Shown here: one piece after another, positions 3,001 through 59,499 of the stretch | How the letters are laid out: every line of letters starts with the position of its first letter | Numbering within the stretch: the stretch's first letter is position 1 | DNA from: Flectonema sp. DT1601 | Lineage: Eukaryota | Assembly (NCBI GenBank): GCA_964019425.1 | Contig: OZ025790.1 | Span: forward strand, 806,001-870,000 | Direction: 5' to 3' | Length of the DNA stretch: 64,000 nucleotides | The notes under the pieces: model-generated | What the model saw: only the letters and a program-made list of their open reading frames with translations | What the model was told of the DNA's origin: nothing | The model's database searches: none | Program-made: the position numbers and the translations under genes

Positions 3001-5318
3001 AAATACTCGTCCGCAGAGGGGTCATGGAGCCCCGAGTTGAATCGTCCGAACACCGCTCCCCACTTCCCCTGAAACACCACCAGAATCTTCGCGTTCGTCG
3101 CGTCCAATTTCGCCCCCACGTCCAGAGACGACAGCGCCCCGGCAACCTCCAGAGACAGACCTCCAGCCAACCCATTCGCCAGCTGACGGAACTTGATTAG
3201 CAATTCCAGGTAGTCCCCCAAGTTCTTCGCGATGTCGAATTTCCCCTTGAAAGACGACAGAAGCCCCTCGATCTGTGACAACCCCGGGATCGATGACAAC
3301 CCCGACACGTCGAGACCCCCAATCCCCTCAATCAGGCTCGTCAGCTTCTCCGGCAGCTCCGAGAACGTGTTCGTCGACAATCCCGTGTGTCCGACCCCTT
3401 CCCCGACACCGTTCGGAAGGCTCGGAATGAAAGCCGACAAGTCCATATCCAGAGAGAATTTCGGAAATCCCCCCGCGAACAGATTCTCGTTGTGGTACTC
3501 GATGATGGGGATCAGGTTCGCGTCCCCGCTGAACAGTCCCACGTCCAGCTCGATTGGCAGGATCACATCCACCGATGCGTAAGGAGTAATCGACAGTTGC
3601 GACAGAAACTCTTTCATCCCATTAACACCTCCGGACCGCAGCTTGAACAGCGAAGCCTCCAAGTACGGAGTCAGCTCACCTTCCGCTACCGCAGCTCCAA
3701 AGTTCGACTTGAACCCAGCACCCAGAGCGAAAGACCCCTCGCTGATCGCAACCGTGAACACGTCTCCCCCGAAAGACAAGCTGAAGTCCACCGGGTCCAC
3801 CACGATCGCTGCCCCTGCGGACAAATCGTTCACCCGAATCACGGAATTCACCGCGATCTTCTCTCCCGACAGCGCCCCGTCGTTCACGAACTTCGTGTTC
3901 ACCGCGAGCGTCACGTCAACGACCACCTGCGCTTCGAACTTCACCTCTGCCGACAGGCTCGGTGCCGCTACATCCCCCTGCGACTGTCCCAGCAGGTCGA
4001 ACAGCGGACCCAGGTCCTTGATGTGCGAAAGCATCCCGTCGATGGTCGCCCCAAAAGATCCCACAGACTCACTAGCTGAAGCCTCCAACCGCATGTTCAG
4101 CCGCACCTCGTTCGACTCCGGGAACCAACCCCCGCTCAGCGTCAACCCGCCCCCTGCGGCATAGTCCAGCGACGCCCCGTTTGTCGGCGTCATCAACCGA
4201 TCCTTGATGTGGGCCATCAGCCCGCGGAACGTGTGCGACCCCGACAGCCCGAAGTACGCCTCCGCCACGGTCTCCAACTTCAGCAGCTCTCCCACTCCGT
4301 TGAACAGCGTAGACGAGTCCAATCCCTCGATGTTCAGCCCGCCGTCCCACCCGAATTTACCAAAATCAATGTTTGCAAGCTGCCCCAGCTGTCCCAAGAT
4401 CGTCTCTTTCAGTGGATCGATGTCCGCATCTACCGAGAAAACCAGCGCCACTCCATCGAAGATGTTCTCATCCGACAAACTCAGAACAGGCGACGGCAGC
4501 TGCCCGACGATCGGCGTCGTTACCCCAACCGTGAACACTCCCTCGAAACCTCCGCTCGGACTTCCCACAGAAATCTCCTGCACCCGCGTCAAGAAGTTTG
4601 TCACGTCGTCCGACGGAAAGTAAATCGGAACTTCCGCATTCGAGATCGTCGCCGTCCCAGCAAGGCTCACCATCCCACTCACTCCGGTCCAAGCCACCTC
4701 CTCTCCAGCATCTACCGACCCACTCAGAGAGATCGTTACCTTCGAAGCACCAATCGAGATCGTCGCCTTCTCCGACGGAGACGTCACCGAGTTCGGAATC
4801 TTCAGCGTCACCGTCGACGAGAAACCACCGGTTCCGGTCAAACTCAGCCCCCCACCCACCTTGAACGCAATCCCCAGCTTCTGCAGGTCAGCTGCCGGAA
4901 GTGATCCAAGACTACCGGAAAGGGTGACCGCTTCTTCCAGAGCCACCGTCATCGAGATCGTCAGCTCATCTGTCACCGTGTCGTGCGTGCACGCCGCTGC
5001 GATCTGGCTTCCAAGGGCCGTATTCACCACGTCGAATGCCGTCTCGTTCACCGTGTTCAGCGTGGTAGTCAGATCCGCTGCGAACTTTGGCAGACCCATC
5101 GAACCTAAATCCTTGTTTGCTCCCGGAATTAAGTTTGAGAATTGGGTCAGTTTGCCTTCGATCGAAGCAGATGCGACCTTCACTGCGTCCAGTGCGTCTA
5201 AGATATGCTGCTGATACGCAGCTGCCACGTCTACACATGGTTCCATTAAACCGTTTGTAGGTGTTGCTGACAACATCGCACTTATCGCCATCATCATTAT
5301 CGACGATCGCGTACTCAT
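1..5318 (-). CDS. Very large secreted/surface protein of unknown function (partial, >1770 aa, runs off window start)
   Basis: ATG at 5318 after an A-run. Reads MSTRSSIMMMAISAMLSATPTNG (signal-peptide-like), then a long Gly/Ser/Leu/Val/Thr-rich frame; no stop seen in the parts translated. Probably absent from the ORF track because the stop lies outside the window. Confidence 0.85.
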   Translation of the reverse strand, partial: MSTRSSIMMMAISAMLSATPTNGLMEPCVDVAAAYQQHILDALDAVKVASASIEGKLTQFSNLIPGANKDLGSMGLPKFAADLTTTLNTVNETAFDVVNTALGSQIAAACTHDTVTDELTISMTVALEEAVTLSGSLGSLPAADLQKLGIAFKVGGGLSLTGTGGFSSTVTLKIPNSVTSPSEKATISIGASKVTISLSGSVDAGEEVAWTGVSGMVSLAGTATISNAEVPIYFPSDDVTNFLTRVQEISVGSPSGGFEGVFTVGVTTPIVGQLPSPVLSLSDENIFDGVALVFSVDADIDPLKETILGQLGQLANIDFGKFGWDGGLNIEGLDSSTLFNGVGELLKLETVAEAYFGLSGSHTFRGLMAHIKDRLMTPTNGASLDYAAGGGLTLSGGWFPESNEVRLNMRLEASASESVGSFGATIDGMLSHIKDLGPLFDLLGQSQGDVAAPSLSAEVKFEAQVVVDVTLAVNTKFVNDGALSGEKIAVNSVIRVNDLSAGAAIVVDPVDFSLSFGGDVFTVAISEGSFALGAGFKSNFGAAVAEGELTPYLEASLFKLRSGGVNGMKEFLSQLSITPYASVDVILPIELDVGLFSGDANLIPIIEYHNENLFAGGFPKFSLDMDLSAFIPSLPNGVGEGVGHTGLSTNTFSELPEKLTSLIEGIGGLDVSGLSSIPGLSQIEGLLSSFKGKFDIAKNLGDYLELLIKFRQLANGLAGGLSLEVAGALSSLDVGAKLDATNAKILVVFQGKWGAVFGRFNSGLHDPSADEYFSLFSFPTYFRAYFTGLSTGSVSTGALSVGEVGQLLSLHPDFGMTKRMAQALLRELPDAVRNLFGSVDASGFPVTVGSVRFNPVDYLTELRVALAPSVSAGSFTLGSLGDLLSVGEALGTSTDFQSAMLVLIGESKFSVLTVEGFHLDPSTGEIFDWKNYLPQVGSALFGSSAVSITVDDLANLFGRNPSIGGFVNYLKKRVFGSGLTVGVSVGPLSVNGGLETNTEGDMCVVVDLLLDFGAEATTAELVTALADALTKLLDGVADNPAFDSVAMETLGALGDLSTALSFGAEFRVGVTAGLNLKPLIETKSAPLAYTRVTDFFFAVRANLTDYVETLSFGAIDLTLESGNLLLGFGVNSTATAAGPVTLFDQTASPAVSFDVQPLKDSLVLQGSLEASLPIRVESVLVTLDIVDRNLFDATGPKFQVDVALTPQIVDALISGLGAVASVGEKLNSLEALNTNIPLLDRSLNGMLATGENSTTFGDFLIWDAELTKLVDEKYSATCKASEGSPVCPGAREVITMYQEKLLAMVELIFKPQNNVPFALVSGGRNGDVFELSFLVNGLLDMEITPKLQDLIDEELFEFSGVNTFAAKATLGFRFELRIDLSGGLSSVSANDVSIAFDDFVLDLSLNSGLEATVTVGVLGAAIDGGSGSIAMRFEGALSGGNHVAITQISGDAMVITKSGHVKAEIPFKATIGETDLSGSNNVGMGGEDLRPRVTVDLPDIFTPGGLTIAHHNMDQLLNFRGLSPLDVVQIVNTVINGLQEYASSPVFNVTLPLIDLSLGNAIDFADSITEKLVSVMTAAQAPKDRQTLSLCYESEMLPGWAGADNAAFQEALTFRTFEIEINQQYVTLIELDYAAIQAETTTAGVAARVAEAVNAAGLGSSITVAARDDGTEGIRVCTTEEIEASVLGFRVTLLKTGNTKYEEMLGKPVKVLGIEDGTVVNVAREPSFSTADALSAILSEALAPTVVKVTLEQDAVTQQWDVMFNVALPQLS

Positions 5319-5438
5319 TTTTTTAGCAGCTGAGAGTTGTTTCTAGCTGCTCTTATTCTTTGATTACCCTTTTCTTTTATTTGATGGGTAACTTGTATAA
5401 CTGAACGAGAGAATGAGAATAAGTAATATAAAAAAAAA

Positions 5439-5522: not shown

Positions 5523-6063
5523 AAAAGGAACGATGTCGTAGATCAAGTCTTCCCCTATTTACCAACAGAATAGAGTCACGCAATTAGATTAATTCACATT
5601 AGAGTGTTGTGGTAGCCTGCATTAACATAAATAAAATACACAAATACGTCTGTGCGAACATTACAACACTCCCATCTCCCAACAACAGGAAACAAGAAGA
5701 AGATACACAACAAGGAAAACGAGGCACAGCTCAACACACGGAAAACGTCGAAACACTGAATGCAACACGATCCAGCATTTCGAGAAAAAAAAGTTTAATT
5801 CAGTTTGTGTGTCATATAAACAACATGACACAGCGGAGAGGAAGAAACTGCTGCGTTCTGATTGTCTGGTCGAAAGCTACCAAGCAATTCAGCACAGCAT
5901 ACGAAGCTTACACAGTTAACAACTGGATTGCTACCAGACATATTCGTTGTCGGGAGAGCGTTTAAAATGGAACAAATAGTGTTTTTTTTTCTCTTTACTG
6001 TTAATTTTTAAATTTTTCTTTTTTTTTTTTTTTTTTTTTTTCAGAGAAAAGCAATACTTTTTA

Positions 6064-9196
<3,133 letters not shown>

Positions 9197-12830: not shown

Positions 12831-14177
<1,347 letters not shown>

Positions 14178-23152: not shown

Positions 23153-24883
23153 TTAATGAAGTTTGGTAGGAGTGTCAAAAGGAGAAGATGGTGACAGCGG
23201 TTGTGGAGAATGAGATAACGCGCGTGCAGGAGAAGCCGAAGGAACACCTGAACGGTTATGTCCAGAGTGAAATGTACGATGTGAGCTCCTCAGGTTAGCT
23301 TCTTCTTTTTCAAGTGTCTCACGTTGAAAACGAAGACGAACTTCCTCCCCAAGGAGCGGACGCTCTTCTTCTTCTGCACTGCGACGCTTCGCAATGTGCT
23401 CATCGCATTCTTGTCTCAAGTTAGCAGCAAACTCTTCACTGCTCATTACCTCTCGTTCAGTGTTTGATACGATTATCTTTTTAGCTGACTCGTTGTCCTT
23501 CGCAGCTAGCAGGTCGCGAACAGCTCCTTCTTTCTTTACGGCAGCACGTGCAACGGCGTCCTTAGACTGTAAGTGTGCTACACCCTTCTCTCTTTGAATG
23601 TCCTGCACTCTCGCTAATTCCCCCTCAGCTACGGTTAACTCATTTGCGATGAGTCGAGAGCGTTCATTGCAGGCATCGAGGTCAGCTTGTGAAATATGTT
23701 TCTTCTCTTCGGAGGTGGAAACGCCGTTTTCGCGGGTTGCGACTTCGAGCTCTTGTGAAGATAGTAAGTTTTGTAGTTCTTCAATTCTTTGAAGAGTTCG
23801 GTTTCGTTCATCCTGCTGCTGTTGAAGAGATTGAACAGCAGCATCGAGATCACGAGTAGCTAATGCGTGAGATACTTCAGCTTTTCGAATATCTTCTCTT
23901 CCGTGAGCAGCCTCCTGAACTTTTGAAGAAACTGATTGACGAACTTGAGAAGTCTCCTCCTGGGCCTGTTCAAGAACTGCTTTTGCTTCAGTCTCAGACG
24001 TTTGAGTTCCTTCTAATGTTCCGATTGCTGCTTCTAAGTTTGCTTCATTATTGATAACTTCATTACTGGCAGAGTTTAAGACGTCATTTGATGTTCTCAA
24101 CTTCTCATGTGATGCGTCAACTGCCTTCCCTGCGGCTACGATAGAAGCACTCAACTTATCCTCAGCAACTTGATCTTTCCATCTGTAGAATAAAGAGTCC
24201 AATATCGTCGGGTACAGTTCTGCAAATCTTTGAAATTCTCCGAAGTCGATCTTTTCATCGTTGTTGCTGTCGGCTTTGTGGAAGAGTTCTCCAGGAACAG
24301 AAACAGTATCGAACTCAACGCGATATTTTAGTAAGTTATCAACGAACACCTGCTCTACGAATGAACCAACACGATTCTCATCCATAATATTAAATACCTG
24401 TCTTACTTTATCTTGATGACTCTCTCCTCTAACAGCTGATGTAATTACTGGTGACAGAGATGATTGTACCTGTGGAGGTGGAATAGGATCAACAGGTGAA
24501 GGACTCATGTATGGAGGTGGTGGAGGTGGCATTGTTGGTGACATTGTCAAAGCTGGAATAGTCTTGCAAGGAGGTGGAATCTTGGATTGAATTTCTCTAT
24601 GAAATGCTGTCTCTCTCTGCAACACATAAACCTGACTGTAACCCTTCAACTGAATCTGGGAAGTAAGATCAACCCATTGCTCAACAACATCGTCAAATAT
24701 TTGCATCTTTTGAACTGAAAACGGCTCCATTGGAACATCAAGAGGTCTTCTAAGTGACGCCTCAGTAGCAAGCACAGCCTCTACCTTTGCTTGAAACTCA
24801 ATCATGGTGGGAGGTGATACGAATTGAAGTTCAAAATTTGTCTTCACAGAGAAGAGATCTGCAGCTACAAGTATAATAAACAT
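23153..24883 (-). CDS. BILBO1: BILBO1-family flagellar pocket collar protein (NTD, EF-hands, coiled coil)
   Basis: N-terminus VAADLFSVKTNFELQF...WVDL...QVYVLQ...HREIQSKIPP, EF-hand with EFQRFAELYP, long coiled coil ending EEVRLRFQR. May be a paralogue rather than the orthologue. Confidence 0.85.
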   Translation of the reverse strand: MFIILVAADLFSVKTNFELQFVSPPTMIEFQAKVEAVLATEASLRRPLDVPMEPFSVQKMQIFDDVVEQWVDLTSQIQLKGYSQVYVLQRETAFHREIQSKIPPPCKTIPALTMSPTMPPPPPPYMSPSPVDPIPPPQVQSSLSPVITSAVRGESHQDKVRQVFNIMDENRVGSFVEQVFVDNLLKYRVEFDTVSVPGELFHKADSNNDEKIDFGEFQRFAELYPTILDSLFYRWKDQVAEDKLSASIVAAGKAVDASHEKLRTSNDVLNSASNEVINNEANLEAAIGTLEGTQTSETEAKAVLEQAQEETSQVRQSVSSKVQEAAHGREDIRKAEVSHALATRDLDAAVQSLQQQQDERNRTLQRIEELQNLLSSQELEVATRENGVSTSEEKKHISQADLDACNERSRLIANELTVAEGELARVQDIQREKGVAHLQSKDAVARAAVKKEGAVRDLLAAKDNESAKKIIVSNTEREVMSSEEFAANLRQECDEHIAKRRSAEEEERPLLGEEVRLRFQRETLEKEEANLRSSHRTFHSGHNRSGVPSASPARALSHSPQPLSPSSPFDTPTKLH

Positions 24884-25583: not shown

Positions 25584-28500
25584 TTAGTGTTTAGGTGATG
25601 GCTGGTCATCCGTAACATCTTGTTGTTCTGAGATATGTACCTCACCAGTTATTTCATCAGACGGCTGTTCCACTGACTGAGGCTGTTCTTCTGGCTGTGG
25701 TTGTTCCTCCAGTTGTTCCACCGATTGAGGCTGCTCTTCTGGCAGTGGCTGCTTTTCCGGTTGTTCCACTGACTGTGGTTGTTCTTCTGGCTGTGGCTGT
25801 TCCTCTGGCTGTGGTTGTTCTTCCGTTTGTTCCACCGATTGAGGCTGCTGTGGCTGTTCCTCCAGTTGTTCCTCTGGCTGTGGCTGTTCCTCTGGCTGTG
25901 GCTGTTCTTCCGTTTGTTCCACCGATTGAGGCTGCTCTTCTGGCTGTGGCTGTTCCTCTGGCTGTGGCTGTTCCTCTGGCTGTGGCTGTTCTTCCGTTTG
26001 TTCCACCGATTGAGGCTGCTCTTCTGGCTGTGGCTGTTCCTCTGGCTGTGGCTGTTCCTCTGGCTGTGGCTGTTCTTCCGTTTGTTCCACCGATTGAGGC
26101 TGCTCTTCTGGCTGTGGCTGTTCCTCTAGTTGTTCCACTGATTGTGGTTGTTCCTCTGGCTGTGGCTGTTCCTCTGGCTGTGGTTGTTCTTCCGTTTGTT
26201 CCACCGATTGAGGCTGCTCTTCTGGCTGTGGCTGTTCTTTCGGTTGTTCCACTGATTGAGGCTGTTCCACTGACGGTGGTTGTTCCTCTGGCTGTGGCTG
26301 TTCCTCCGTTTGTTCCACCGATTGAGGCTGCTCTTCTGGCTGTGGCTGTTCTTCTAACTGTGGGTCTAAATGAACTTCACTTTGTAATTGTTCCCGTTGT
26401 TGAATAGTATCAACAATAGGATTACTTACTACTGATATTGGTGAAGAGTCTGATGATTTCTTCATCCATTCAATAGAGGAATATTGAGAATTAAAACAAA
26501 GACTTGGTGACAACAGTGAAGCAGTAGATGTTAATGGGAATAGTAAAACAGGACCTGGTTGGCTTTGAGTTGGTTCAACTTTTGAAGACTTTGCCAGGCT
26601 ACTGATACTGGAGATGACGCTGACTGGTGCAGCTACTGCTGCTGACGCAACTTGGAGAAGTTTATTAGTAGGGTTTGAGTCTTCTTTTTTATCAACTGGA
26701 ATTGAAACAGAAGAAGGACTCAAATGGTGTTTTACAGTTCCAATTGAAGTTTCTGGTTCCCAAGTAGTCCACGTCACTGCTTTACAACTTTCACTTGACG
26801 GTTTCTCAATTGGTTGTAATGTGAATGGCAATCTGGCAGAATTCTCTGTTTTTGGTTTTTTTTCACCGACAATCTTCTTTAATTCCTCGTCGGTCAACAT
26901 GTTTTCTCGTTTTTCCTGATCCCTCTTTGGGAGTGGTATGTCGGGTATATTCGGAACAGTTGCGATGTTATGTATTCTTCTCTTCGATTTATCACCATCA
27001 CTACCACTTGAAGAATCACTAAACTCCGTGTAGTCAGCTAAAATATTATTCATTATCGTTTTTTCTTTCACTTCTTTAGCAGCAGCATCTTCCAATGGCT
27101 GTGATGGATATGCTAAAGGAGCACTGCATGCACGACAGAGCTGATTAAAGTATGTCGAGAATTCTTTCAAAGTCATCTTTGAATCACTTTGGATATTTTC
27201 ATTAAATAATTTAATAACAGGAGGTGAATCTGGTGTGTTTCTATCCTTTAGAAGGTGAGGACCCTGGGCTTTATTATTAACCCAGGCACCGACTTGGACA
27301 GCTCCTGTTTCGGAATTAATTAAATATCTGACTGAATTACCTACAGTGTATTTCGTTACACAACTTTTACAACAACGCTGAGGAGTTGTGTAGTTGAAGT
27401 GGTTCGGAAAGGTGTGGGTTTGATTGCTGCATTCTTTGCAGAATAAATTACCACATCCTCTACAATGATGTCGTCTCCTTGTTAGTAACGTGAATGGCTT
27501 TGTGCAATCAGAACAGGTAGACGAGCTGTCATCTGGTGACATGGTTGGTTGTATGAATAAATCTTTTTTTTCAGATCCCTTCTCAAATATTTGAATTTCA
27601 ACATTCTGGTCAGGATGTCTAATTATTAATATTCTTTCTTGAACTTCATCTTCCCATTCTCCCTCATATTTTATACTCGATTCGAGATCCAGAAGAACAC
27701 CTCTTCCATTCCTTTTATCATCCTTCCACATTCCAGTAAACATAAAGCTGTCGGTAGTAAGTTTACCCATACCATGTCGAAGATCCTTACCCCATTCACC
27801 CAGGTAGATGTCACCTGTTGGGTAAGAAATAAGACCTATTCCGTGTCTCATGCCGTTGTGGTGCATTCCATTGTAATTTGATGCATCATCGTATATTGCT
27901 TTTCCAATTCCATGACGAGTGACTGTGGATGTGAGACCATCAGAGTGAGTTGTTCTTTTTACTTCTCCGTGATAAACTGTTTTTAAAATAACACCTTGTT
28001 CGAAATATCCTTCTTTCGTAGTCCCGTCAGGAAGTCTTAAGAATCCTTGACCAGTTGGAAGACCATTAGAAAACGCTCCAATATACTCCGTGTTCTTATC
28101 TGTTATTAAGTTTCCGTTACCTGACTCTAAAGAATCACTCATAGAACCGACGTAGTAGTAGTTTCCATTTGATGATATCTTTCTTGCCATTCCGTTAAAA
28201 CCGTTTTCTGTTGCCGTTCCTGTTATGTAATTACCATTCTCCATTACTGATATTATTGTACTTCCTTTGACAGCTGCTTGTGCACAAGACGAACAGGCTT
28301 TATCTTTATCTTTACGAGTTGATGTTGACATCGGTGATGGAGGTTCACTATCTTGACTTGCTGAGAGTGAATCATCTCTCGTACTTCCTAACTGACCGGC
28401 AGATTCGATTCTATGCATTCCACTTGTCTCTGAGAATCCACAGTGTCCGATCGGTATTTTAAACTCCTTCAAACATGATGAACAGGCATCTCGTTTACAA

Positions 28501-30428
28501 CCCGGACAACAATACTTCCAACGGCTGATCCCAAATGATGATTGACAGAATTCACATTTTTGACCACTAGTTGCTGCGTCAGCTACCTGCTGATGGACAT
28601 GAAGTACTGAAAGGACTTCAAGACCAGAACTGTATTGAGTAATAAAGGTTCGAATGTGTTTATGATTATCATCAAAACAATGAACTGTTAAGGTACCAGT
28701 TGGTTTATCTTCAATCCAATGTGATTCAATTTGATAGTTAGAATGAAATAATATTCCCGACCCAGTTCTACTATTGTGATCCCAAGAACCAGAATACTTA
28801 TTACCATCAGTGTCAAACAGTGTTCCTTGACCATGACGGGTTCCCTCTGACCATGTTCCTGAATATTGAGAGTTGTTTGGGTATTGGAGGGTACCTATTC
28901 CGTAGGGGATATCGCAAACAACGTCACCTTCGAAAATACCTCCGTCTTTGAAAGTAATTCGACCGAATCCAGATTTGTGTCCCTGTACCCAAGTTCCATA
29001 ATAATATGACCCATTTGGGTATCTGTAAGTACCTTCACCGTGATAAGTATATCCATGATGCTCTCCATCATAGTGAGTAGTTGGTTCATTATTATCCCAT
29101 AATCCATGTTGAATAGTGTTATCAGGTCTTTGTTGAGTTCCTGGTCCTTGTCGCTTTCCGCATTCCCATTTTCCAACGAATTCGGTTCCGTCAGCTTCCC
29201 GTAAACAACCAATTCCATGACGTTCTCCTCGTTCCCATCTGCCGTAGTAAAAACCGTCTTTAGAAGTCCACATCAGTCCTTTGCCGTGAAACTTATCAAA
29301 CTTCGAGTCACCGCAATAAACAGAATCATCTTTCATCCACATGACACCTTTCTGTCGCTCACCTTTTATAAAGGCTCCAATAAAGACATCTCCCGAAGCG
29401 TATTTCATTCTTCCAGGTGAAGTAGGGTTGTCTCCGGTATGAAACAATCCGTTAACTGTTGGACCAGTGTACTCTGCGTCTTGTTTTGGGAACTTGAAAG
29501 TACCGCGGCCGTTTGGTTTACCTCGAAGCCACTCACCAGAGTAGGTGTCACCATTTCTGTATGTTTGAATGCCTTGTCCGGATATTTGATTTGCTTCCCA
29601 TTCTCCGTGGTAGCGGTCACCGTTATGATATTCTCGTATTCCTTTTCCTTCTTTCATATCTTTATTCCAATCTCCGTCATAGCGACCTCCGTTTGCATAC
29701 ATTAAAATACCTTTACCGTGTCTCTGATCGTTGATCCAAGTTCCTTCGTATCGATCACTGTTGTCGTATGTACACTTTCCTCTACCTTCTCTTTTATTGT
29801 CAACTAGTTCTCCAGAATAAGAGTTTCCGTTCTTGTAATCGATACGCCCCTTGCCGTGCATTCCACGTATTTTATGAAAATTTCCTTCGTATTGTTTTAC
29901 TGCTCCGGTAGAGTCGCCTGCGAAGAATTTCGAAGGGAATGACGGAGAATTCCCGAGAGAAACTCCCTTAGCAATCTTTTTTAATGTATTTTGAGATGTA
30001 TATTTGACGGATTGTCCGAATGGTTGACCAGCATCCCACTGACCTTCGAATTTGAAGTCTTTGGTGCTGATCGTGCCGGTACCATGACGATGACCTTCGA
30101 ACCATTCCCCAATGTAGACTGAGTGATCTCCATATTCACGTTTACCCTGGCCGTGCCATTGGTCATTTTGCCATTCGCCGTCGTAGCTGCCGTCATTTGG
30201 GGTGTCAAAAAACCCTTTTCCGCTTCTCTTTCCCATAACCCATTGACCACCGTATCTTGTTCCATCGTGAAATAATGCGATTCCACTTCCATCAGGTAGT
30301 CCAACTGTTTCACACTTATCTCCATCATAGTGACGAATACTTTTATCTGAAACCAGACCAACGTTAACTTCGACGTTGTAGTTACGCAGCTTCTTAAGCG
30401 TGATGTCGTCCCATTTTCCCTTCATCAC
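25584..30428 (-). CDS. MORN-repeat protein with two FYVE-type zinc fingers and a Gln/Glu/Pro repeat tail, 1614 aa
   Basis: Many YxGxW...HGxG repeats; canonical FYVE (RRRHHCRGCG) and a degenerate one (WKYCCPGC). Confidence 0.93.
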   Translation of the reverse strand: MMKGKWDDITLKKLRNYNVEVNVGLVSDKSIRHYDGDKCETVGLPDGSGIALFHDGTRYGGQWVMGKRSGKGFFDTPNDGSYDGEWQNDQWHGQGKREYGDHSVYIGEWFEGHRHGTGTISTKDFKFEGQWDAGQPFGQSVKYTSQNTLKKIAKGVSLGNSPSFPSKFFAGDSTGAVKQYEGNFHKIRGMHGKGRIDYKNGNSYSGELVDNKREGRGKCTYDNSDRYEGTWINDQRHGKGILMYANGGRYDGDWNKDMKEGKGIREYHNGDRYHGEWEANQISGQGIQTYRNGDTYSGEWLRGKPNGRGTFKFPKQDAEYTGPTVNGLFHTGDNPTSPGRMKYASGDVFIGAFIKGERQKGVMWMKDDSVYCGDSKFDKFHGKGLMWTSKDGFYYGRWERGERHGIGCLREADGTEFVGKWECGKRQGPGTQQRPDNTIQHGLWDNNEPTTHYDGEHHGYTYHGEGTYRYPNGSYYYGTWVQGHKSGFGRITFKDGGIFEGDVVCDIPYGIGTLQYPNNSQYSGTWSEGTRHGQGTLFDTDGNKYSGSWDHNSRTGSGILFHSNYQIESHWIEDKPTGTLTVHCFDDNHKHIRTFITQYSSGLEVLSVLHVHQQVADAATSGQKCEFCQSSFGISRWKYCCPGCKRDACSSCLKEFKIPIGHCGFSETSGMHRIESAGQLGSTRDDSLSASQDSEPPSPMSTSTRKDKDKACSSCAQAAVKGSTIISVMENGNYITGTATENGFNGMARKISSNGNYYYVGSMSDSLESGNGNLITDKNTEYIGAFSNGLPTGQGFLRLPDGTTKEGYFEQGVILKTVYHGEVKRTTHSDGLTSTVTRHGIGKAIYDDASNYNGMHHNGMRHGIGLISYPTGDIYLGEWGKDLRHGMGKLTTDSFMFTGMWKDDKRNGRGVLLDLESSIKYEGEWEDEVQERILIIRHPDQNVEIQIFEKGSEKKDLFIQPTMSPDDSSSTCSDCTKPFTLLTRRRHHCRGCGNLFCKECSNQTHTFPNHFNYTTPQRCCKSCVTKYTVGNSVRYLINSETGAVQVGAWVNNKAQGPHLLKDRNTPDSPPVIKLFNENIQSDSKMTLKEFSTYFNQLCRACSAPLAYPSQPLEDAAAKEVKEKTIMNNILADYTEFSDSSSGSDGDKSKRRIHNIATVPNIPDIPLPKRDQEKRENMLTDEELKKIVGEKKPKTENSARLPFTLQPIEKPSSESCKAVTWTTWEPETSIGTVKHHLSPSSVSIPVDKKEDSNPTNKLLQVASAAVAAPVSVISSISSLAKSSKVEPTQSQPGPVLLFPLTSTASLLSPSLCFNSQYSSIEWMKKSSDSSPISVVSNPIVDTIQQREQLQSEVHLDPQLEEQPQPEEQPQSVEQTEEQPQPEEQPPSVEQPQSVEQPKEQPQPEEQPQSVEQTEEQPQPEEQPQPEEQPQSVEQLEEQPQPEEQPQSVEQTEEQPQPEEQPQPEEQPQPEEQPQSVEQTEEQPQPEEQPQPEEQPQPEEQPQSVEQTEEQPQPEEQPQPEEQLEEQPQQPQSVEQTEEQPQPEEQPQPEEQPQSVEQPEKQPLPEEQPQSVEQLEEQPQPEEQPQSVEQPSDEITGEVHISEQQDVTDDQPSPKH
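25670..26360 (-). repeat. Coding minisatellite of 18-bp units (EEQPQP / EEQPQS / VEQT)
   Basis: Visible ctctggctgtggctgttc repeats with higher-order blocks. Confidence 0.95.
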
Positions 30429-35849: not shown

Positions 35850-37040
35850 TCACAATCCTATTTTAGACCTCTTTTTTGCCCTTATATAAAGGGACAAGTC
35901 TGGCAATAAGTCTTTCAAATACATAGACCTTTCCACAAACAGAGAACTATTGTTTTCAGGTACCTGAACTGATTGAAGTCCTTCGCAACCTTCGAGAAAG
36001 CTCCCCCCAATTTTTGTAACACTATTCAGACTAGAGAGGTCTAACGAGGTAATAGAGAAACAGCCCTTTAAGCAAAAATCTCCAATTTCATTGACACTAT
36101 TCAGACCAGAGAGGTCTAACGAGGTAATAGAGAAACAGCCCTTTAAGCAAAAATCTCCAATTTCATTGACACTATTCAGACCAGAGAGGTCTAATTTGGT
36201 GATGGAAGTACAGGATCCTAAGAAATAACTTCCAATACTTGTGACACTATATAGACCAGAGAGGTCTAATGAAGTGATAGAAGAACAGAATCCTAAGAAC
36301 AAACCTCCAATTTTAGTGACACTATTCATACCAGAGAGGTGAAGTGAAGTGATGGAAGAACAGTTTGCTAAGAAAGAATTTCCAATTGCAGTAACACTAT
36401 TCATACCACAGAAGTCAAGTGAAGTGAGTGAAGAACAGAAAAATAAGAACCCATCTCCAATTGATGTGACACTATTCATACCACAGAGGTCAAGCAAAGT
36501 GAGTGAAGAACAGAAAGAAAAGAACTCATCTCCAATTGATGTGACACTATTCATACCAGGGAGGTCAAGCGAAGTGAGTAAACAATTTTCTTTTAAGAAT
36601 GAGTCTTCGATGGCTTGGACTTCAGAATTTGAATTGCGGAACGAAACCCGTTTGACTATTGGAGGTATCAATCCTTTCTCAAGTTTGAGGATATTGTTCT
36701 CTAAGAATGTGGGAGTGTCCAGAAAGAGACATTTTTCTTCGTCACCAGCCAGCCTGCGAAGCAGCTCCTCTCGCTTTGTTTCATCCACAAACCAGCTTTT
36801 ACCAAATAAACGAAATCGTTTCTTCCCCACCTCCAGCTCGCTGTTGGGCCCCACTCCATGAACAGCCAGACGCTTAGTTTCACAAAGAAGCTCTCCAGCG
36901 AACGACAGTTCGACTTCCTCCGCATCGATGCCCCACTCCTCAACCGCCGCAGTCAACACGTCGCTCACGAGTGAATCAGCAACAGCTGTGAATGACACCG
37001 CGGGAAGTCCCAAATCCGGACACGACACAGAAACTTGCAT
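35850..37040 (-). CDS. Ubiquitin-like N-domain plus BspA-like 25-aa leucine-rich repeats (paralogue 1, 396 aa)
   Basis: MQVSVSCP...ELSFAGELL...NSELEV, then repeats such as SSITSLDLSGLNSVNEIGDFCLKGC. Confidence 0.88.
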   Translation of the reverse strand: MQVSVSCPDLGLPAVSFTAVADSLVSDVLTAAVEEWGIDAEEVELSFAGELLCETKRLAVHGVGPNSELEVGKKRFRLFGKSWFVDETKREELLRRLAGDEEKCLFLDTPTFLENNILKLEKGLIPPIVKRVSFRNSNSEVQAIEDSFLKENCLLTSLDLPGMNSVTSIGDEFFSFCSSLTLLDLCGMNSVTSIGDGFLFFCSSLTSLDFCGMNSVTAIGNSFLANCSSITSLHLSGMNSVTKIGGLFLGFCSSITSLDLSGLYSVTSIGSYFLGSCTSITKLDLSGLNSVNEIGDFCLKGCFSITSLDLSGLNSVNEIGDFCLKGCFSITSLDLSSLNSVTKIGGSFLEGCEGLQSVQVPENNSSLFVERSMYLKDLLPDLSLYIRAKKRSKIGL

Positions 37041-37772
37041 TGTGTTGAGGAATGGCTGAAGTGGAGATAAGATAAGAATAGCTAGCGCGCTGTACGCCAT
37101 GTCGAAGAATCAAATAATACACCTCAGCCGCTAACAAAACTGACTCAACAACTCAGAATCATCTTCAGCATCCCATTCATCCCGACATCAGGTGTAGTAT
37201 TTTCACCTCAACTAAATTTGTTGATCCGAAAGCCCGAAAAGCAACTTACCAGAAAAGAAGAATGCAAGAGCCGTTGATCTTGTTCTGTAATTCCTATTGA
37301 GGAGATGAAGTACAATGGGTTCAAGAATCACCTACTCCTTCAGGATTGACACTGAAGAACTGTTGACGCAAAAAAAAAGATACAAAAGAAAAGAAGAACA
37401 TCCGATGCTATTCTGAAAACCTCCACACCTGTGAGTGTCCTCCTCAGGAGGATAGTTTGAAGCGGAAGACTCCCTCTGCTTTGCTATTTACATTTCCCAG
37501 TCCATACTAGTGAAGCAAGTGGAGAAATCCATCAGTCGGTATTTCCAGCAAGTACTTCGATTGTTCGATGAATTAATAAAAGTATTGCACTGACGATCAC
37601 TAGTCGGCATCTATCAGGGGATGAGAATCTCCTCCCGTCGGGTAGGAACATCAGGTTGAAGAAGACAACAAACTTATGACTTCGAAGTAGTATCGTGCTC
37701 GAGTGTTGGAACTTCTTATCGATAGATATAATTATTATAAGTTGAGCATCACAAGATAGATTATAAATAATA

Positions 37773-39424: not shown

Positions 39425-42400
39425 CTATTTTAGTGGCCTAGCCGAACGATCTCTGCTGGCAGCCACCTCAGCGCTAAGTCTAGCGATTCTGCGTTCGAGG
39501 CTCTCTCCCTCAATACTTCCACCAAGCGTTGCAGCAGGCATCGAACTTGCGGCACCAATGCCTGCGATACTTAACGGTGCTGTAATATCAGTAGCGTATT
39601 TCATTGATGAAACACCATACGGAGCTGGTGACACTCCTCTGGGATGAGCAGCAATCGCAGGCCTTCCAACTGGTCGTCCAACACTAAGTGGTCTACCAAC
39701 TCTGACCTCTGAAGGAACAATTGGCATTATAGATCTCGTCTCTCGAAGTGATGGAGAAGACAAACTCGCCGCCACTTCTCTCCTGGCTAGCTCCACAGCA
39801 GCTGACTGCGCTGGTGCATAAGCTACGAGAGCTGAACTTCTAATTGGTGAGCTTTCTCTTGACGACGCACCCAATGTTGGAGCTGCTGCAATACCAACTG
39901 CTGGGACATCCCTCGGAGAACCTCTGATAGGACTCGCCTGTTGGTGTTGTTTATAATGCTGTGTTATTATAATTACACTAGACGAGAGGTAACTTAATAC
40001 TGTAATTATATACAAAGAAACATGAAACTGGCTAAAAGGTTAGTTGCTATGTTTAAACTAACAGTTGGTATCGAACGGAGGGGGGAAAGAAATAAAACAT
40101 ACGACAGTTGCAGTCATTACAGCAGGTGCATTGTTTCCAATAATCCCCTGACGGATGCGTTCAACTGCACTCAGAGTTGACATGTTAACTGGAGGAACAA
40201 TCGAAGCTTGACCACCTCGAGCGATAGACGGAGAGCTTTGCAAGTGGCTCTGGGAAGTTACAACAGATCTTGCTGGTGATGTATGAAGATCATTACCTCC
40301 TCCATTAACAGCATCTTTGAATAAAAGTGTACTTGTTCCTTTAATACGAAGTTCCTTCATGGCATTCTGTAATGCTTCTTTACTGGAAATTGGATTTCCG
40401 TCAACAGCCAACAACTGCATTCCCTCACTAATTCCTGCTCTGTAAGCAGCTCCGTTTGGTGTTACAGACTTCACAACAATCTCTCCGTCATTTCTACCTT
40501 CCCAAAAGAGACCAACTGTTTCCAAGTCTCTGAGCTGCACGACGCAGATTCTCTCTCCGGGGAGGGTTGCTCGGTTTGCCGTTGCCTGTAATTAGATTTT
40601 TATGATTGATGTGAGCAAAAGTTTCCAATAAAACATTAAAAACAAATGTACGAATACAAACCCTATGAGAAGGAGCAGGTGATGTATGCCTTAATGACAA
40701 ACTGTTAGGAGGTGGTATTTCTACAGGAGATTGACTACGAAGAGCACCCCTGTTGGCGGATGCAGGTCCGGATGCTCTTCTGTTTGGAGATCCACGTACT
40801 GGTGATACTGGTCTCCATTGTTCGTCGAATGCATTTAAATCTTTGTGGTGTTTGGCTTCCTTTTCTTCAAGTGCAAGTCGCTGTTCGACGAGTCTGATTT
40901 CCTGTTCTAGGATTGGTCTCTCTTCACCATTGAGAGCATTTCTTCTTTTCTTCAATTCCTCACTCTCCTCCTGAAGTTGTCTCAGTTGCTTCTCCATGTC
41001 AGTGACATCTGCTCCAGCATTCTCTAAATTGTTCTTCGCATCCTGAAGTGCGGCCTGTTGTTTAGCAACTCTGTTAGCTGCTTCAGCCTTTGCACGTTCT
41101 TGTGCTCCAGTATTACGACGAGCGTCAAGTAAGTGTTGTTGAGTTTCACGTCTTCTCTGCTCTTTAACTTTCTTAACATTGTCGAGAGTTACTTCAGCAT
41201 CTTGAACAGCAGCTTCTGCTCTCTTTACTTCAGTGTCGGCGATTTCCTTCTCGCGGGTAGCTGCGAATTGTAATTCTTCAGCATCTGAGTACTCTTGTTG
41301 AGTTCTCTTTACATTCTCCTGTTGCTGGATGCAGGTGTTGCGCTGCTCTTCAAGAAGACGTTGTAATTCCAACAGCCGTTCCTCAGCGCGCTTTGACTCC
41401 GTTTCGGCAGCGAGAACTCGAGACTTCTGTCTGTCGACTTCGCGATCAGTTCTGAGCAAGTCAGCACCTGACTGTCTTTCACGTTGTCTTTGCTTTTCCA
41501 GGTCAGAAGCTCTGTCTTTGAGAGCATTCTCAGCATGGGCAACTAAAGCAGTTTGTAGTCTTTGAGCAGTTCTTTGACTGTCTTCACTAATCTCATGACA
41601 CCATCCACGTGGTACATTGTGTCCTTCACATTCCATACTGATGAGTGCAGCATTAGGGAGATTTCCGTCAGTTGCTTGTTCTTTGATTTTAAATGCAGCG
41701 AATGGGGGGAGGAGGAGCTCAGCTTCTTTTGGGTATTTACTAATCTCTTGTAATGCTACTCCCCATCTACAAGACCCAACAAGGAATAGAATTGATCCTC
41801 CAGATGATCTGGTAGCATTAGCTGCGTCACCTCTGATATAAGATTCACTAACTTCCCTATCGAAGGCACATGATGAAGCTGAAGGCCAATGAAGAGGTTC
41901 ATCAACACCCATTGCTCTGTGTGCTGCTAAGACTTCAGCAGGTAATCCAGCAAGCCCTCTGTACAGCATTTCTGTTGGATCCGATCCGTTCTGTTGAGTA
42001 CAAATTGAAATTAACAGTCCGATATACTTCACCCACTTGCAGCATGTCTCCCAAGCTTCAATCCCATCAGCCTGATCTCTCTTTTTAGGATCCGCTGCTG
42101 TTCTCATCGCCCAGTTAATTGCGCTGAAAACTGCTCCGTTTCTCTCTTTGCCGTACTGTTTGACGTAGTTTTCCCAAGGGGTTGGGTTTTGTTCGTCATA
42201 TGTTGGGACATTATCGAAGGTGACGAGAGCGTCAATATCAGGGCCAGCCATAGTGTATATTGTCATACACAAAAGTTCTATTCTGTTATACTTTGGGTAC
42301 GCATCTCCTTTAACTTGTTGTAAATAACGTGAAGCTTCTGCAATGACAGCGAGTTTAGAATGGACTGTTTCTGGTGCTTTTATGTTGGAGATTAATTCGT

Positions 42401-43043
42401 CGACGACGTCACCTGGTTTGCGTCTCCATTCAGTTGCGATGCGATCAACGAAGTCGTGAATGTCTTGTTCGGATATTGAAGAGTACTGCTGATCTTTTTT
42501 TTCTGCACAAACACCTTTAGCTGCTGTGCCTAAAGCACTCGCTACTTGATCAGCTTGTCTTGTTGATACTTCATGACGCTCTGATTCATCAGACATGCGA
42601 GCAGCTGCTTCTTGTTCACGTTGTTTATCAAGAAGTCCAGTTTGTGATTGAAGATCAATTTCTGCTTGTTGGAGTTCATCCATTGAAGTTTGAAGATTTT
42701 CTTGCATCTTATCCTGCGTTGATAATGATGACGTGAGTTGCTCTCCAGCAGTTTGGACTGCTGACATGTGTGTCTCAGCAGTCTTTCTATCATTTAATCT
42801 GTGGAATAAACATTCCATTAATTTTGGATATTGTTCTCCGAGATACCTAAACTCAGCCATGCTTAGCCTGCCGTCACTATTATTATCACATCTCTCAAAT
42901 AAGTGAATTATCGTGGAACTGCTGAATTCTACTTCTAATGATCGAAGACTTTCTTCAAAGTCAGAAGTTGTCGGCGTGTCCATTCCTCTGCTGAAAGATT
43001 GAAACACGACCCTCGTCATCTCATCGAGTCCGTGTCGAGACAT
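39425..43043 (-). CDS. BILBO1-like EF-hand/coiled-coil protein with inserted ADP-ribosyltransferase domain and PDZ domain, 3 exons
   Basis: GT-AG introns 40586-40661 and 39938-40102 join three ORFs in frame. EF-hand DNNSDGRLSMAEF; ART motifs LYRGL, SASSC, YPKEAELLLPP; PDZ VKSVTPNGAAYRAGISEGMQLLAVDG. Confidence 0.85.
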
Positions 43044-57756: not shown

Positions 57757-59247
57757 TCACAATCCTATTTTAGACCTCTTTTTTGCCCTTATATAAAGGG
57801 ACAAGTCTGGCAATAAGTCTTTCAAATACATAGACCTTTCTACAAACAGAGAACTATTGTCTGCAGGTACCTGAACTGATTGAAGTCTTGCGCAATCTAT
57901 GAGAAAGCTCCCTCCAATTTTTGTAACACTATTCAGACCAGAGAGGTCTAACGAGGTAATAGAGGAACAGCCCTTTAAGCAAAAATCTCCAATTTCATTG
58001 ACACTATTCAGACCAGAGAGGTCTAACTTGGTGATGGAAGTACAGGATCCTAAGAAATAACTTCCAATACTTGTGACACTATATAGACCAGAGAGGTCTA
58101 ATGAAGTGATAGAAGAACAGAATCCTAAGAACAAACCTCCAATTTTAGTGACACTATTCAGACCAGAGAGGTGAAGTGCAGTGATGGAAGAACAGCTTGC
58201 TAAGAAAGAATTTCCAATTGCAGTGACACTATTCATACCACAGAAGTCAAGTGAAGTGAGTGAAGAACAGAAAAATAAGAACCCATCTCCAATTGATGTG
58301 ACACTATTCATACCACAGAGGTCAAGCAAAGTGAGTGAAGAACAGAAAGAAAAGAACTTATCTCCAATTTTAGTGACACTATTCAGACAAGAGAGGTGAA
58401 GTGAAGTGATGCAAGAACAGCCTTTCAAGAAAGAATTTCCAATTGCAGTGAGACTATTCATACCACAGAAGTCAAGTGAAGTGAGTGAAAAACAGTAAGA
58501 TAAGAACCCATCTCCAATTGATGTGACACTATTCATACCAGAGAGGACAAGTGAAGTGATGGAATAACAGAATCCTAAGAACAAACCTCCAATTTTAGTG
58601 ACACTATTCATACCAGAGAGGTCAAGTGCAGTGATGGAAGAACAGCCTTTCAAGAAAGAATTTCCAATTGCAGTGAGACTATTCATACCACAGAGGTCAA
58701 GTGAAGTGAGTGAAGAACAGTAAGATAAGAACCCATCTCCAATTGCAGTGACACTATTAAGACCAGGGAGGTCAAGCGAAGTGAGTAAAGAATTGTCTTT
58801 TAAGAATGAGTCTTCGATGGCTTGGACTTCAGAATTTGAATTGCGGAACGAAACCCGTTTGACTATTGGAGGTATCAATCCTTTCTCAAGTTTGAGGATA
58901 TTGTTCTCTAAGAATGTGGGAGTGTCCAGAAAGAGACATTCTTCTTCGTCACCAGCCAGCCTGCGAAGCAGCTCCTCTCGCTTTGGTTCATCCACAAACC
59001 AGCTTTTATCAAATAAACGAAATCGTTTCTTCCCCACCTCCAGCTCGCTGTTGGACCCCACTCCATGAACAGCCAGACGCTTAGTTTCACAAAGAAGCTC
59101 TCCAGCGAACGACAGTTCGACTTCCTCCGCATCGATGCCCCACTCCTCAGCCGCCGCAGTCAACACGTCGCTCACGAGCGAATCAGCAACAGCTGTGAAT
59201 GACACCGCGGGAAGTCCCAAATCCGGACACGACACAGAAACTTGCAT
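57757..59247 (-). CDS. Ubiquitin-like N-domain plus BspA-like LRR protein (paralogue 2, 496 aa)
   Basis: Near-identical termini to 35850-37040 with a net four more 25-aa repeats; shared block 57545-59395 vs 35638-37192. Confidence 0.88.
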   Translation of the reverse strand: MQVSVSCPDLGLPAVSFTAVADSLVSDVLTAAAEEWGIDAEEVELSFAGELLCETKRLAVHGVGSNSELEVGKKRFRLFDKSWFVDEPKREELLRRLAGDEEECLFLDTPTFLENNILKLEKGLIPPIVKRVSFRNSNSEVQAIEDSFLKDNSLLTSLDLPGLNSVTAIGDGFLSYCSSLTSLDLCGMNSLTAIGNSFLKGCSSITALDLSGMNSVTKIGGLFLGFCYSITSLVLSGMNSVTSIGDGFLSYCFSLTSLDFCGMNSLTAIGNSFLKGCSCITSLHLSCLNSVTKIGDKFFSFCSSLTLLDLCGMNSVTSIGDGFLFFCSSLTSLDFCGMNSVTAIGNSFLASCSSITALHLSGLNSVTKIGGLFLGFCSSITSLDLSGLYSVTSIGSYFLGSCTSITKLDLSGLNSVNEIGDFCLKGCSSITSLDLSGLNSVTKIGGSFLIDCARLQSVQVPADNSSLFVERSMYLKDLLPDLSLYIRAKKRSKIGL

Positions 59248-59499
59248 TGTGTTGAGGAATGGCTGAAGTGGAGATAAGATAAGAATAGCGCGCTGTACGC
59301 CATGTCGAAGAATCAAATAATACACCTCAGCCGCTAATAAAACTGACTCAACAACTCAGAATCATCTTCAGCATCCCATTCATCCCGACATCAGGCATTA
59401 CTGAGAGAGTAATAGTTTTAAAGATATTTCCAATCATATAAATATATGTACTGAAGGGAGAAGACCCCCCAACCGCTAGAGAAGTACTTCCTCAGTGTC

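Follow-up and report, generated by a model that had tools for sequence, protein, structure and literature searches.

A gene at 39425..43043 of the 64,000-nucleotide stretch of contig OZ025790.1 from Flectonema sp. DT1601 (Eukaryota) analysed here, to which all positions refer and which is called the window below, is predicted to encode a protein of approximately 1130 aa. In this product, the EF-hands and the coiled coil of the BILBO1 family are combined with an R-S-E-type ADP-ribosyltransferase (ART) domain, which is set into the coil, and with a PDZ domain. We interpret the product of this gene (hereafter the ART gene) as a cytoskeleton-anchored, likely arginine-specific mono-ADP-ribosyltransferase, a prediction that we hold with somewhat more belief than doubt. 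Every part of the protein belongs to a known domain family, and what is new is the combination of the domains and its conservation. This gene, like all the other features located below, lies on the minus strand.

The segment inserted into the coil comprises about 330 residues beginning at a conserved GVCAEK (aa 177–503, 41535..42515). The preliminary description, which was made from the sequence of the window, had placed an insert of ~300 aa in the middle of the coil at ~41590–42480, and the family profile covered this segment with slightly wider limits. The only Pfam family hit of the insert was ART (PF01129), which scored 23.3 bits with the whole frame and 24.4 bits with the domain alone (cut-off 22.3) and was matched by 11 of the 12 aligned family members at E ≤ 0.01. 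NCBIfam returned no family for any of these 12 members. When the profile of the 12 domains was compared with the PDB, it matched Vis (4xzj), an arginine ADP-ribosyltransferase of Vibrio splendidus, at E 2.8e-4 and Tre1 at E 0.14, and the PDB search with the single sequence of the insert found rat ART2.2 alone (E 0.19). The register of the serine motif in the ART2.2 alignment disagrees with that in the Vis profile alignment, and the Vis register was adopted because it fits the strand and helix pattern of the structural model.

This model, generated with AlphaFold2 (AF2) for aa 175–515, reached a predicted local distance difference test score (pLDDT) of 86.4 and a predicted template modelling score (pTM) of 0.87. 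As modelled, the insert adopts the fold of the R-S-E clade, having both its split beta-sandwich and its N-terminal helical part. Foldseek found 135 PDB matches to the model at E ≤ 0.001, the first being Vis (6.5e-9), followed by HopU1, XopAI, C3, and ART2.2. Structural alignment by VIA-align gave Z scores of 11.3–14.6, and ADP-ribosyltransferases made up 50 of 50 among the matches listed. HopU1 was aligned over 204 residues with a root-mean-square deviation (rmsd) of 4.3 (Z 14.6), Tre1 over 181 of 185 residues with an rmsd of 2.6 (Z 14.1), and ART2.2 over 204 of 223 residues (Z 12.9), and ExoS had a Z score of 13.8. The model and both structural comparisons thus return the ART fold that the preliminary description had ascribed to the insert. 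According to the model and the structural alignments, the domain exceeds the classical members by about 100 residues and carries extra helices.

The conservation of the catalytic residues was followed in an hmmalign alignment of 26 family members, which are 34–65% identical. The arginine of the first motif, R362 in LYRGLAGLP (YRG, aa 361–363; R362 at 41958..41960), lies in the first strand of the fold (model strand 186–193) and is present in all 26 members. The second motif is S391-C392-A393 (41865..41873, with S391 at 41871–41873), which overlaps the SSC of aa 390–392; the serine was found in 26/26 members, and the cysteine and the alanine in 25/26 each. S391 is located where a strand ends, ahead of a helix (model strand 216–219, helix 222–230), and in the HMMER alignment to 4xzj it is in register with the first serine of the S-T-S motif of Vis. 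The third motif, E440-A-E442 in YPKEAELLLPP (41718..41726), is an ExE motif with both glutamates kept in 26/26 members. It is located just ahead of a later strand in the AF2 model and aligns with EAEVL of Vis and Tre1 and with QEEVLIP of ART2.2. All the motifs of the R-S-E clade, namely I (R), II (S), and III ([QE]-x-E), are present, and of the S-T-S the first serine alone is kept. The most divergent member, P0023, also retains R, S, and both glutamates. The YRG, SSC, and EAE of the insert had been named beforehand as intact R-S-E motifs, and their decisive residues proved to be invariant in the family. Within the R-S-E clade, ExE is the signature of the arginine type. Since R, S, and ExE do not vary among the 26 members, we infer that the ART domain is catalytically active and arginine-specific.

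The scaffold around the enzyme domain was compared with the product of another gene in the same cluster, located 15 kb from the ART gene at 23153..24883. This paralogue, 576 aa long, is a full BILBO1 homologue that comprises an N-terminal domain (NTD) of the ubiquitin-like type, EF-hands, and a coiled coil. Its identity as BILBO1 rests on the PDB match of its NTD, with the first 107 aa of the protein corresponding to the N-terminal domain of Trypanosoma brucei BILBO1 (6sjq, 2mek) at E 2e-22; it also passes the Pfam model BILBO1_N (PF18281) with 28.7 bits versus a cut-off of 28.3. A word-index search with this protein found five orthologues with 31–46% identity and 95–99% coverage, and no named kinetoplastid BILBO1 was among these five relatives.

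BLASTP aligned aa 29–177 of the ART gene product with residues 180–328 of the homologue (E 2e-12) and aa 640–730 with residues 428–529 (E 6e-6). In an hhalign comparison of a profile of eight ART-gene orthologues with a profile of six BILBO1 homologues, query residues 4–742 were aligned with BILBO1 residues 156–540 across 390 columns (probability 99.7%, E 4.9e-26), and the ART region appeared as one long gap. Since a similar composition can by itself make coiled coils align, the BILBO1 segments were shuffled 500 times each with their composition preserved. The real score was reached by 0/500 shuffles for the N-terminal part (z 17.9), for the C-terminal coil (z 6.7), and for the last 56 residues (z 9.4), and by 3/500 shuffles for the N-terminal coil alone (z 3.2). 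Generic coiled-coil similarity as the cause of the BILBO1 match was rejected by these controls. It is therefore well supported by sequence comparison that the ART gene is a BILBO1 paralogue with an insert in its coil, and the collinearity with the gene at 23153–24883 asserted in the preliminary description was borne out by BLASTP, hhalign, and the shuffled sequences alike. The absence of the ubiquitin-like NTD (PF18281), also asserted there, agrees with the lack of a Pfam BILBO1_N hit in the ART gene and with the start of the hhalign alignment at BILBO1 residue 156.

The N-terminal part of the protein contains a BILBO1-type EF-hand pair (aa 4–80, 42804..43034), identified by hhalign, together with the BILBO1-like helix YPKLMECLFHR, so the family feature of an EF-hand pair followed by a YP..L(E/D).L.(Y/H)R helix is present. 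One of the loops, DNNSDGRLSMAE (aa 53–64, 42852–42887), is canonical, and at this position 8/8 orthologues conform to D-x-[ND]-x-[DN]-G-x-[LV]-[ST]-x-x-E; the Pfam EF-hand hits in the ART gene are weak (E 0.02–0.05). The family's long coiled coil, into which the ART domain is inserted, is also present, and its collinearity extends as far as the C-terminal end. Its N-terminal arm (~aa 73–170, 42534..42827) aligns in hhalign with the initial quarter of the coil of BILBO1, is modelled by AF2 as a helix over residues 73–156 with a pLDDT of ~88–92, and has a coil-like composition at aa 101–171. The C-terminal arm (~aa 479–743, 40815..41609) aligns with BILBO1 residues ~331–540, is modelled as helices 479–549, 553–584, and 610–743, and has a coil-like composition at aa 484–747. 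It has a conserved end, EERPILEQEIRLVEQRLALEEKEAKH, and its segment EE.P.L..E[VI][RK]L..QR is conserved across the eight aligned orthologues.

All these parts are encoded by exon 1 (40662..43043), a 794-codon uninterrupted frame in phase 0 that starts from the ATG at 43043 and continues behind the C-terminal coil into a Ser/Pro-rich linker. Its start corresponds to the N-termini of the orthologues (MSR..M.R.VY). The whole gene is predicted to consist of three exons separated by two short GT-AG introns, in line with three collinear tblastn matches of the relatives P0005 and P0006 (frames −3, −1, and −1), which cover exon 1, the PDZ domain (40319–40534), and the tail (39434–39709). Intron 1 (40586..40661, 76 nt, GTTTGT...TTACAG), predicted from the frames and homology, would on its removal bring the frame of exon 1 exactly into that of the PDZ domain. 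Exon 2 (40103..40585) has 483 nt, that is, 161 codons, with phase 0 at both ends, and is followed by the donor GTATGT. Two in-frame stops (TAG, TAA) occur between the frames of exons 2 and 3, thus a second intron is needed (39959..40102), with its donor GTATGT starting at 40102. Exon 3 could start at 39958, 39937, or 40027, and the length of the predicted product varies with this acceptor. With the first of these positions, exon 3 (39425..39958) encodes a Ser/Pro/Ala-rich tail that ends in the motif ESLERRIARLSAEVAASRDR (39428–39505) in front of the stop codon (39425–39427). The same motif terminates P0003, P0005, and P0006, and the tail matches in tblastn lie within 39434–39913. No hydrophobic signal or membrane segment was detected in exon 1, where the top 19-residue Kyte–Doolittle mean is 1.16 and belongs to a stretch within the ART domain; consequently, the product is read as cytosolic.

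The PDZ domain (40316–40552) lies in exon 2, as previously noted, and was identified by Pfam PF00595 at E 1.2e-7 (32.4 bits versus a cut-off of 23.2), with PDZ_6 also passing (27.6 bits versus a cut-off of 27). In tblastn, the PDZ segments of P0006 and P0005 matched the exon at E 8.7e-20 and 2.8e-15, respectively. One relative offers an indication on the use of this exon, as a single Trinity gene has an isoform, P0002, that begins to encode the PDZ segment and an isoform, P0003, from which precisely this segment is missing; P0005, which belongs to another Trinity gene, shows the full PDZ segment. Since the exon is 483 nt long and in phase 0 at both ends, skipping would preserve the frame. These observations suggest that the PDZ exon is alternatively spliced.

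At E ≤ 0.001, the word-index search for relatives of the ART gene found 23 proteins, the gene's own exon-1 frame included. Nine relatives span 91–99% of exon 1 with 41–56% identity, most of them being EukProt Trinity transcripts together with P0006 of Diplonema papillatum. Three others (P0008, P0010, and P0013) span the N-terminal 62% of exon 1 and stop soon after the ART domain. The best named relative is "hypothetical protein DIPPA_17138" of D. papillatum, with 47% identity over 93% of exon 1. P0005 (1289 aa) and P0006 (1291 aa) run from the region of exon 1 through the PDZ domain to the C-terminal motif SLE(R/K)RIARLSAEVAASRER. Thus, the EF-hands, the coil, the ART domain, the second part of the coil, the PDZ domain, and the C-terminal motif are joined in single transcripts or proteins of relatives. 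The preliminary description had made its proposal depend on transcripts that join the ART, coil, and PDZ parts, and it is in these relatives that the junction was found.

ART domains with the same GVCAEK start, 36–47% identical, also occur in other diplonemid proteins in the company of other partners: CAP (P0014 and P0018), an EF-hand (P0021), and several PDZ domains with a coil (P0022). P0020 and P0031 are further diplonemid ART paralogues without a BILBO1-like coil around the domain. As a whole, these diplonemid ART proteins look like an expanded intracellular ARTC family in which the partner modules have been swapped. An unrooted maximum likelihood tree was calculated from 24 distinct ART domains, from which the isoform duplicates P0003 and P0005 had been dropped. 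The BILBO-fused forms, 11 of the 24 rows, stand on one side of a branch supported by an ultrafast bootstrap (UFboot) value of 86, an SH-like approximate likelihood ratio test (SH-aLRT) value of 98, and 84% of 200 bootstrap trees. The paralogues with other partners fall outside this group, and P0023 is on a very long branch. The tree is consistent with an origin of the BILBO-ART arrangement in one fusion that preceded the divergence of these species. Scans of metagenomes and prokaryote genomes with the ART profile gave pattern matches, none of which was confirmed by tblastn. In the atlas, the whole exon-1 protein gave no usable hit when the ART clusters were left out, and the clusters nearest to the ART domain alone carry PF01129 or PF03496, many of them from protists; these are leads only.

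Compared with T. brucei BILBO1 and the BILBOD proteins of D. papillatum, the ART protein has the same EF-hand pair followed by a long coil, and the collinearity begins with the first EF-hand and lasts until the coil ends. Unlike BILBO1, it is devoid of the ubiquitin-like NTD, its coil is split after approximately the first quarter by the ~330-aa enzyme domain, and it has a long C-terminal extension with the PDZ domain and a conserved terminal helix. ARTC-type (R-S-E) enzymes are known mainly as bacterial toxins and vertebrate ecto-enzymes. With Vis (4xzj), HopU1 (3u0j), Tre1 (6drh), ExoS (6gnk), C3, and iota/CDTa the domain shares the fold (Z 11–14.6) and the positions of R, S, and ExE, and with Vis also a YxxExE of the same spacing. 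In contrast to the bacterial R-S-E toxins, it is encoded by an endogenous, intron-bearing eukaryotic gene and is embedded in a structural protein with no secretion or translocation part; S-C-A stands for S-T-S, extra N-terminal helices are present, and the identity in the structural alignments is 10–22%. Vertebrate ARTCs are secreted, GPI-(glycosylphosphatidylinositol-)anchored or endoplasmic reticulum enzymes with a signal peptide. ART2.2 of this group (1gxy/1og3; PF01129), likewise eukaryotic, could be aligned over nearly its full length, as given above, but the ART protein differs from the vertebrate ARTCs in having no hydrophobic segment and in being fused to cytoskeletal and PDZ modules. 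Neither the signal peptide nor the GPI or membrane anchor typical of the vertebrate ecto-ARTs (ART1–5) was found in exon 1 by the Kyte–Doolittle analysis.

How such a protein could work can be proposed from what is reported on BILBO1. According to the consulted part of PMC4379179, the coiled coil of T. brucei BILBO1 is both required and sufficient for polymers to form and directs the protein to the flagellar pocket collar, and calcium is bound by the EF-hands, which also shape the polymers. The sections consulted of PMC13615690 describe 76 D. papillatum proteins similar to the BILBO1 NTD and at least ten similar to other parts of BILBO1, and localise two tagged homologues around the feeding apparatus; BILBO1 homologues are placed at the cytoskeleton there as well. 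Because the two coil arms correspond to the region of T. brucei BILBO1 that suffices for polymers and targeting (PMC4379179, as far as consulted), they would bring the ART protein into a BILBO1-type polymer, or a polymer of its own, at the flagellar pocket or the feeding apparatus. By this analogy, co-assembly with a BILBO1-type polymer can be inferred. The ART domain would project from the polymer and place ADP-ribose derived from NAD+ (nicotinamide adenine dinucleotide) on arginines of neighbouring proteins, while calcium bound at the canonical EF-hand loop could tune the shape of the polymer and perhaps the exposure of the enzyme. The PDZ domain might recruit a substrate or an anchor through a C-terminal peptide, and, as this domain is encoded by a frame-preserving exon that is skipped in transcripts of one relative, the recruitment could be switched by splicing.

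Several observations weigh against the interpretation of the product as a cytoskeleton-anchored, arginine-specific enzyme. As to the enzyme, the middle motif reads S-C-A where the classical form is S-T-S, which makes NAD+ binding an assumption, and the whole-frame match to Pfam ART is partial (aa 409–459) and only 1 bit over the cut-off. Moreover, ExE enzymes of the R-S-E clade can modify small molecules or mainly hydrolyse NAD+. As to the scaffold, the N-terminal coil taken alone is only weakly similar to BILBO1, as the shuffled sequences indicated, and a globular domain of ~330 aa inside the coil may block rather than permit entry into a BILBO1 polymer. The AF2 model of the full exon 1 was poor (pTM 0.39), with the ART part poorly modelled, and is uninformative on the placement of the arms. 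As to the PDZ domain, the hits in P0005 and P0006 are under the Pfam cut-off, and P0007, P0009, P0011, and P0012 were found by eye, and P0011 also by a Pfam scan, to be without it; consequently, PDZ is not a fixed part of the family.

Some of these points lead to another explanation, in which the ART domain is a real enzyme and the protein lies outside any BILBO1 polymer, being a soluble or membrane-proximal signalling ART that descended from a BILBO1-like gene. The coil arms would then merely dimerise the enzyme, and the PDZ domain and the tail would lead it to the membrane or to a signalling complex. The loss of the ubiquitin-like NTD and the interruption of the coil by a large globular domain speak for this explanation, as does the occurrence of ART paralogues in very different proteins (P0014, P0018, P0021, and P0022), which makes the domain look like a mobile signalling module. 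Nevertheless, the BILBO1 coil is conserved at either end in 8/8 aligned orthologues, and we consider a protein of this kind rather unlikely.

It seems still less probable that the ART-fold domain is an NAD+ glycohydrolase, a sensor of NAD+ or ADP-ribose, or a pseudo-enzyme that serves as a structural or binding module. The replacement of S-T-S by S-C-A, the surplus of ~100 residues over the classical size, and the extra helices would suit such a role, and some members of the R-S-E clade are mainly NADases. However, pseudo-enzymes usually lose their catalytic residues, and here R, S, and both glutamates have been kept in every member aligned. The idea that the ART-coil, PDZ, and tail frames are separate genes or a pseudogene with unreal introns can draw on the ambiguous acceptor of intron 2 and on splicing that is predicted from frames and homology, but it is hardly credible in view of the canonical splice sites, the exact restoration of the PDZ frame by intron 1, and the order of PDZ and tail, which is the same as in the transcripts of the relatives, and separate genes were rejected because EF-hands, coil, ART, and coil share one open 794-codon frame.

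The surroundings of the ART gene form a single directional gene cluster with spliceosomal introns, as all 29 of the 29 frames of at least 220 aa with a Pfam domain in the window are on the minus strand. Directional gene clusters are typical of Euglenozoa. Directly adjoining the BILBO1 homologue, a 1614-aa frame (25584–30428) encodes a FYVE zinc finger along with MORN repeats (E 3.9e-63); in trypanosomes, a MORN-repeat protein sits beside the flagellar pocket collar. Two genes of papain-family cysteine proteases (cathepsins) with the kinetoplastid-type C-terminal extension DUF3586 lie at 6061–8681 and 12831–14177, the former being split over the overlapping frames 6960–8681 and 6061–6972, which implies either a frameshift or an intron. 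Together with the shared orientation of the frames and with DIPPA_17138 as the best named relative of the ART gene product, the DUF3586 extensions mark the window as most likely that of a diplonemid other than D. papillatum. Two genes with BspA-type leucine-rich repeats (Pfam LRR_5) are found at 35850–37109 (E 1e-27) and 57757–59355 (E 2e-44). A frame of at least 1780 aa that runs off the window end (3–5342) is G/S/L/V-rich with a signal-like start and belongs to no Pfam family; it lies within a stretch of 59% G+C, compared with ~40% elsewhere in the window, and no tandem repeats were found in it.

The preliminary description had stated that no such architecture was known. This stands insofar as the literature search, which left the BILBOD1–86 list (File S1 of PMC13615690) outside its range, found no report that joins BILBO1 with an ADP-ribosyltransferase and none on DIPPA_17138, as the papers that name an ADP-ribosyltransferase together with Diplonema or diplonemids look unrelated from their titles and abstracts, and as "ADP-ribosyl" and "PDZ" were not mentioned in the main text of PMC13615690, so far as this was consulted. 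On the other hand, the architecture is not unique to the Flectonema genome, being conserved in diplonemids and deposited at NCBI under the name of "hypothetical protein". DIPPA_17138 may already be listed among the BILBO1-like proteins of PMC13615690.

At its fullest, our proposal describes an arginine ADP-ribose "writer" of diplonemids that resides in a BILBO1-type cytoskeletal polymer, either of the flagellar pocket or of the feeding apparatus, is tuned by calcium through the EF-hands, and is aimed by an alternatively spliced PDZ domain; in this complete form it is possible, and we put it forward only tentatively. Experimental access is feasible through the orthologue DIPPA_17138 in D. papillatum, a species in which yellow fluorescent protein (YFP) tagging and expansion microscopy have been used (PMC13615690, as far as consulted), and an auxin-degron depletion system has been described (10.64898/2026.09.11.751042, in the part consulted). 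The ART gene gives a handle on the regulation of the flagellar pocket and the feeding apparatus of diplonemids, and it shows that the BILBO1 expansion in this group includes forms that gained an enzyme. An endogenous cytosolic ARTC welded to a polymer-forming scaffold would represent a new way to place a protein-modifying enzyme. If the full proposal is true, this protein would represent, for eukaryotes as a whole, the first case of an endogenous ARTC enzyme integrated into the cytoskeleton, and the tip of an expanded intracellular ARTC signalling in diplonemids, which are very abundant marine protists.

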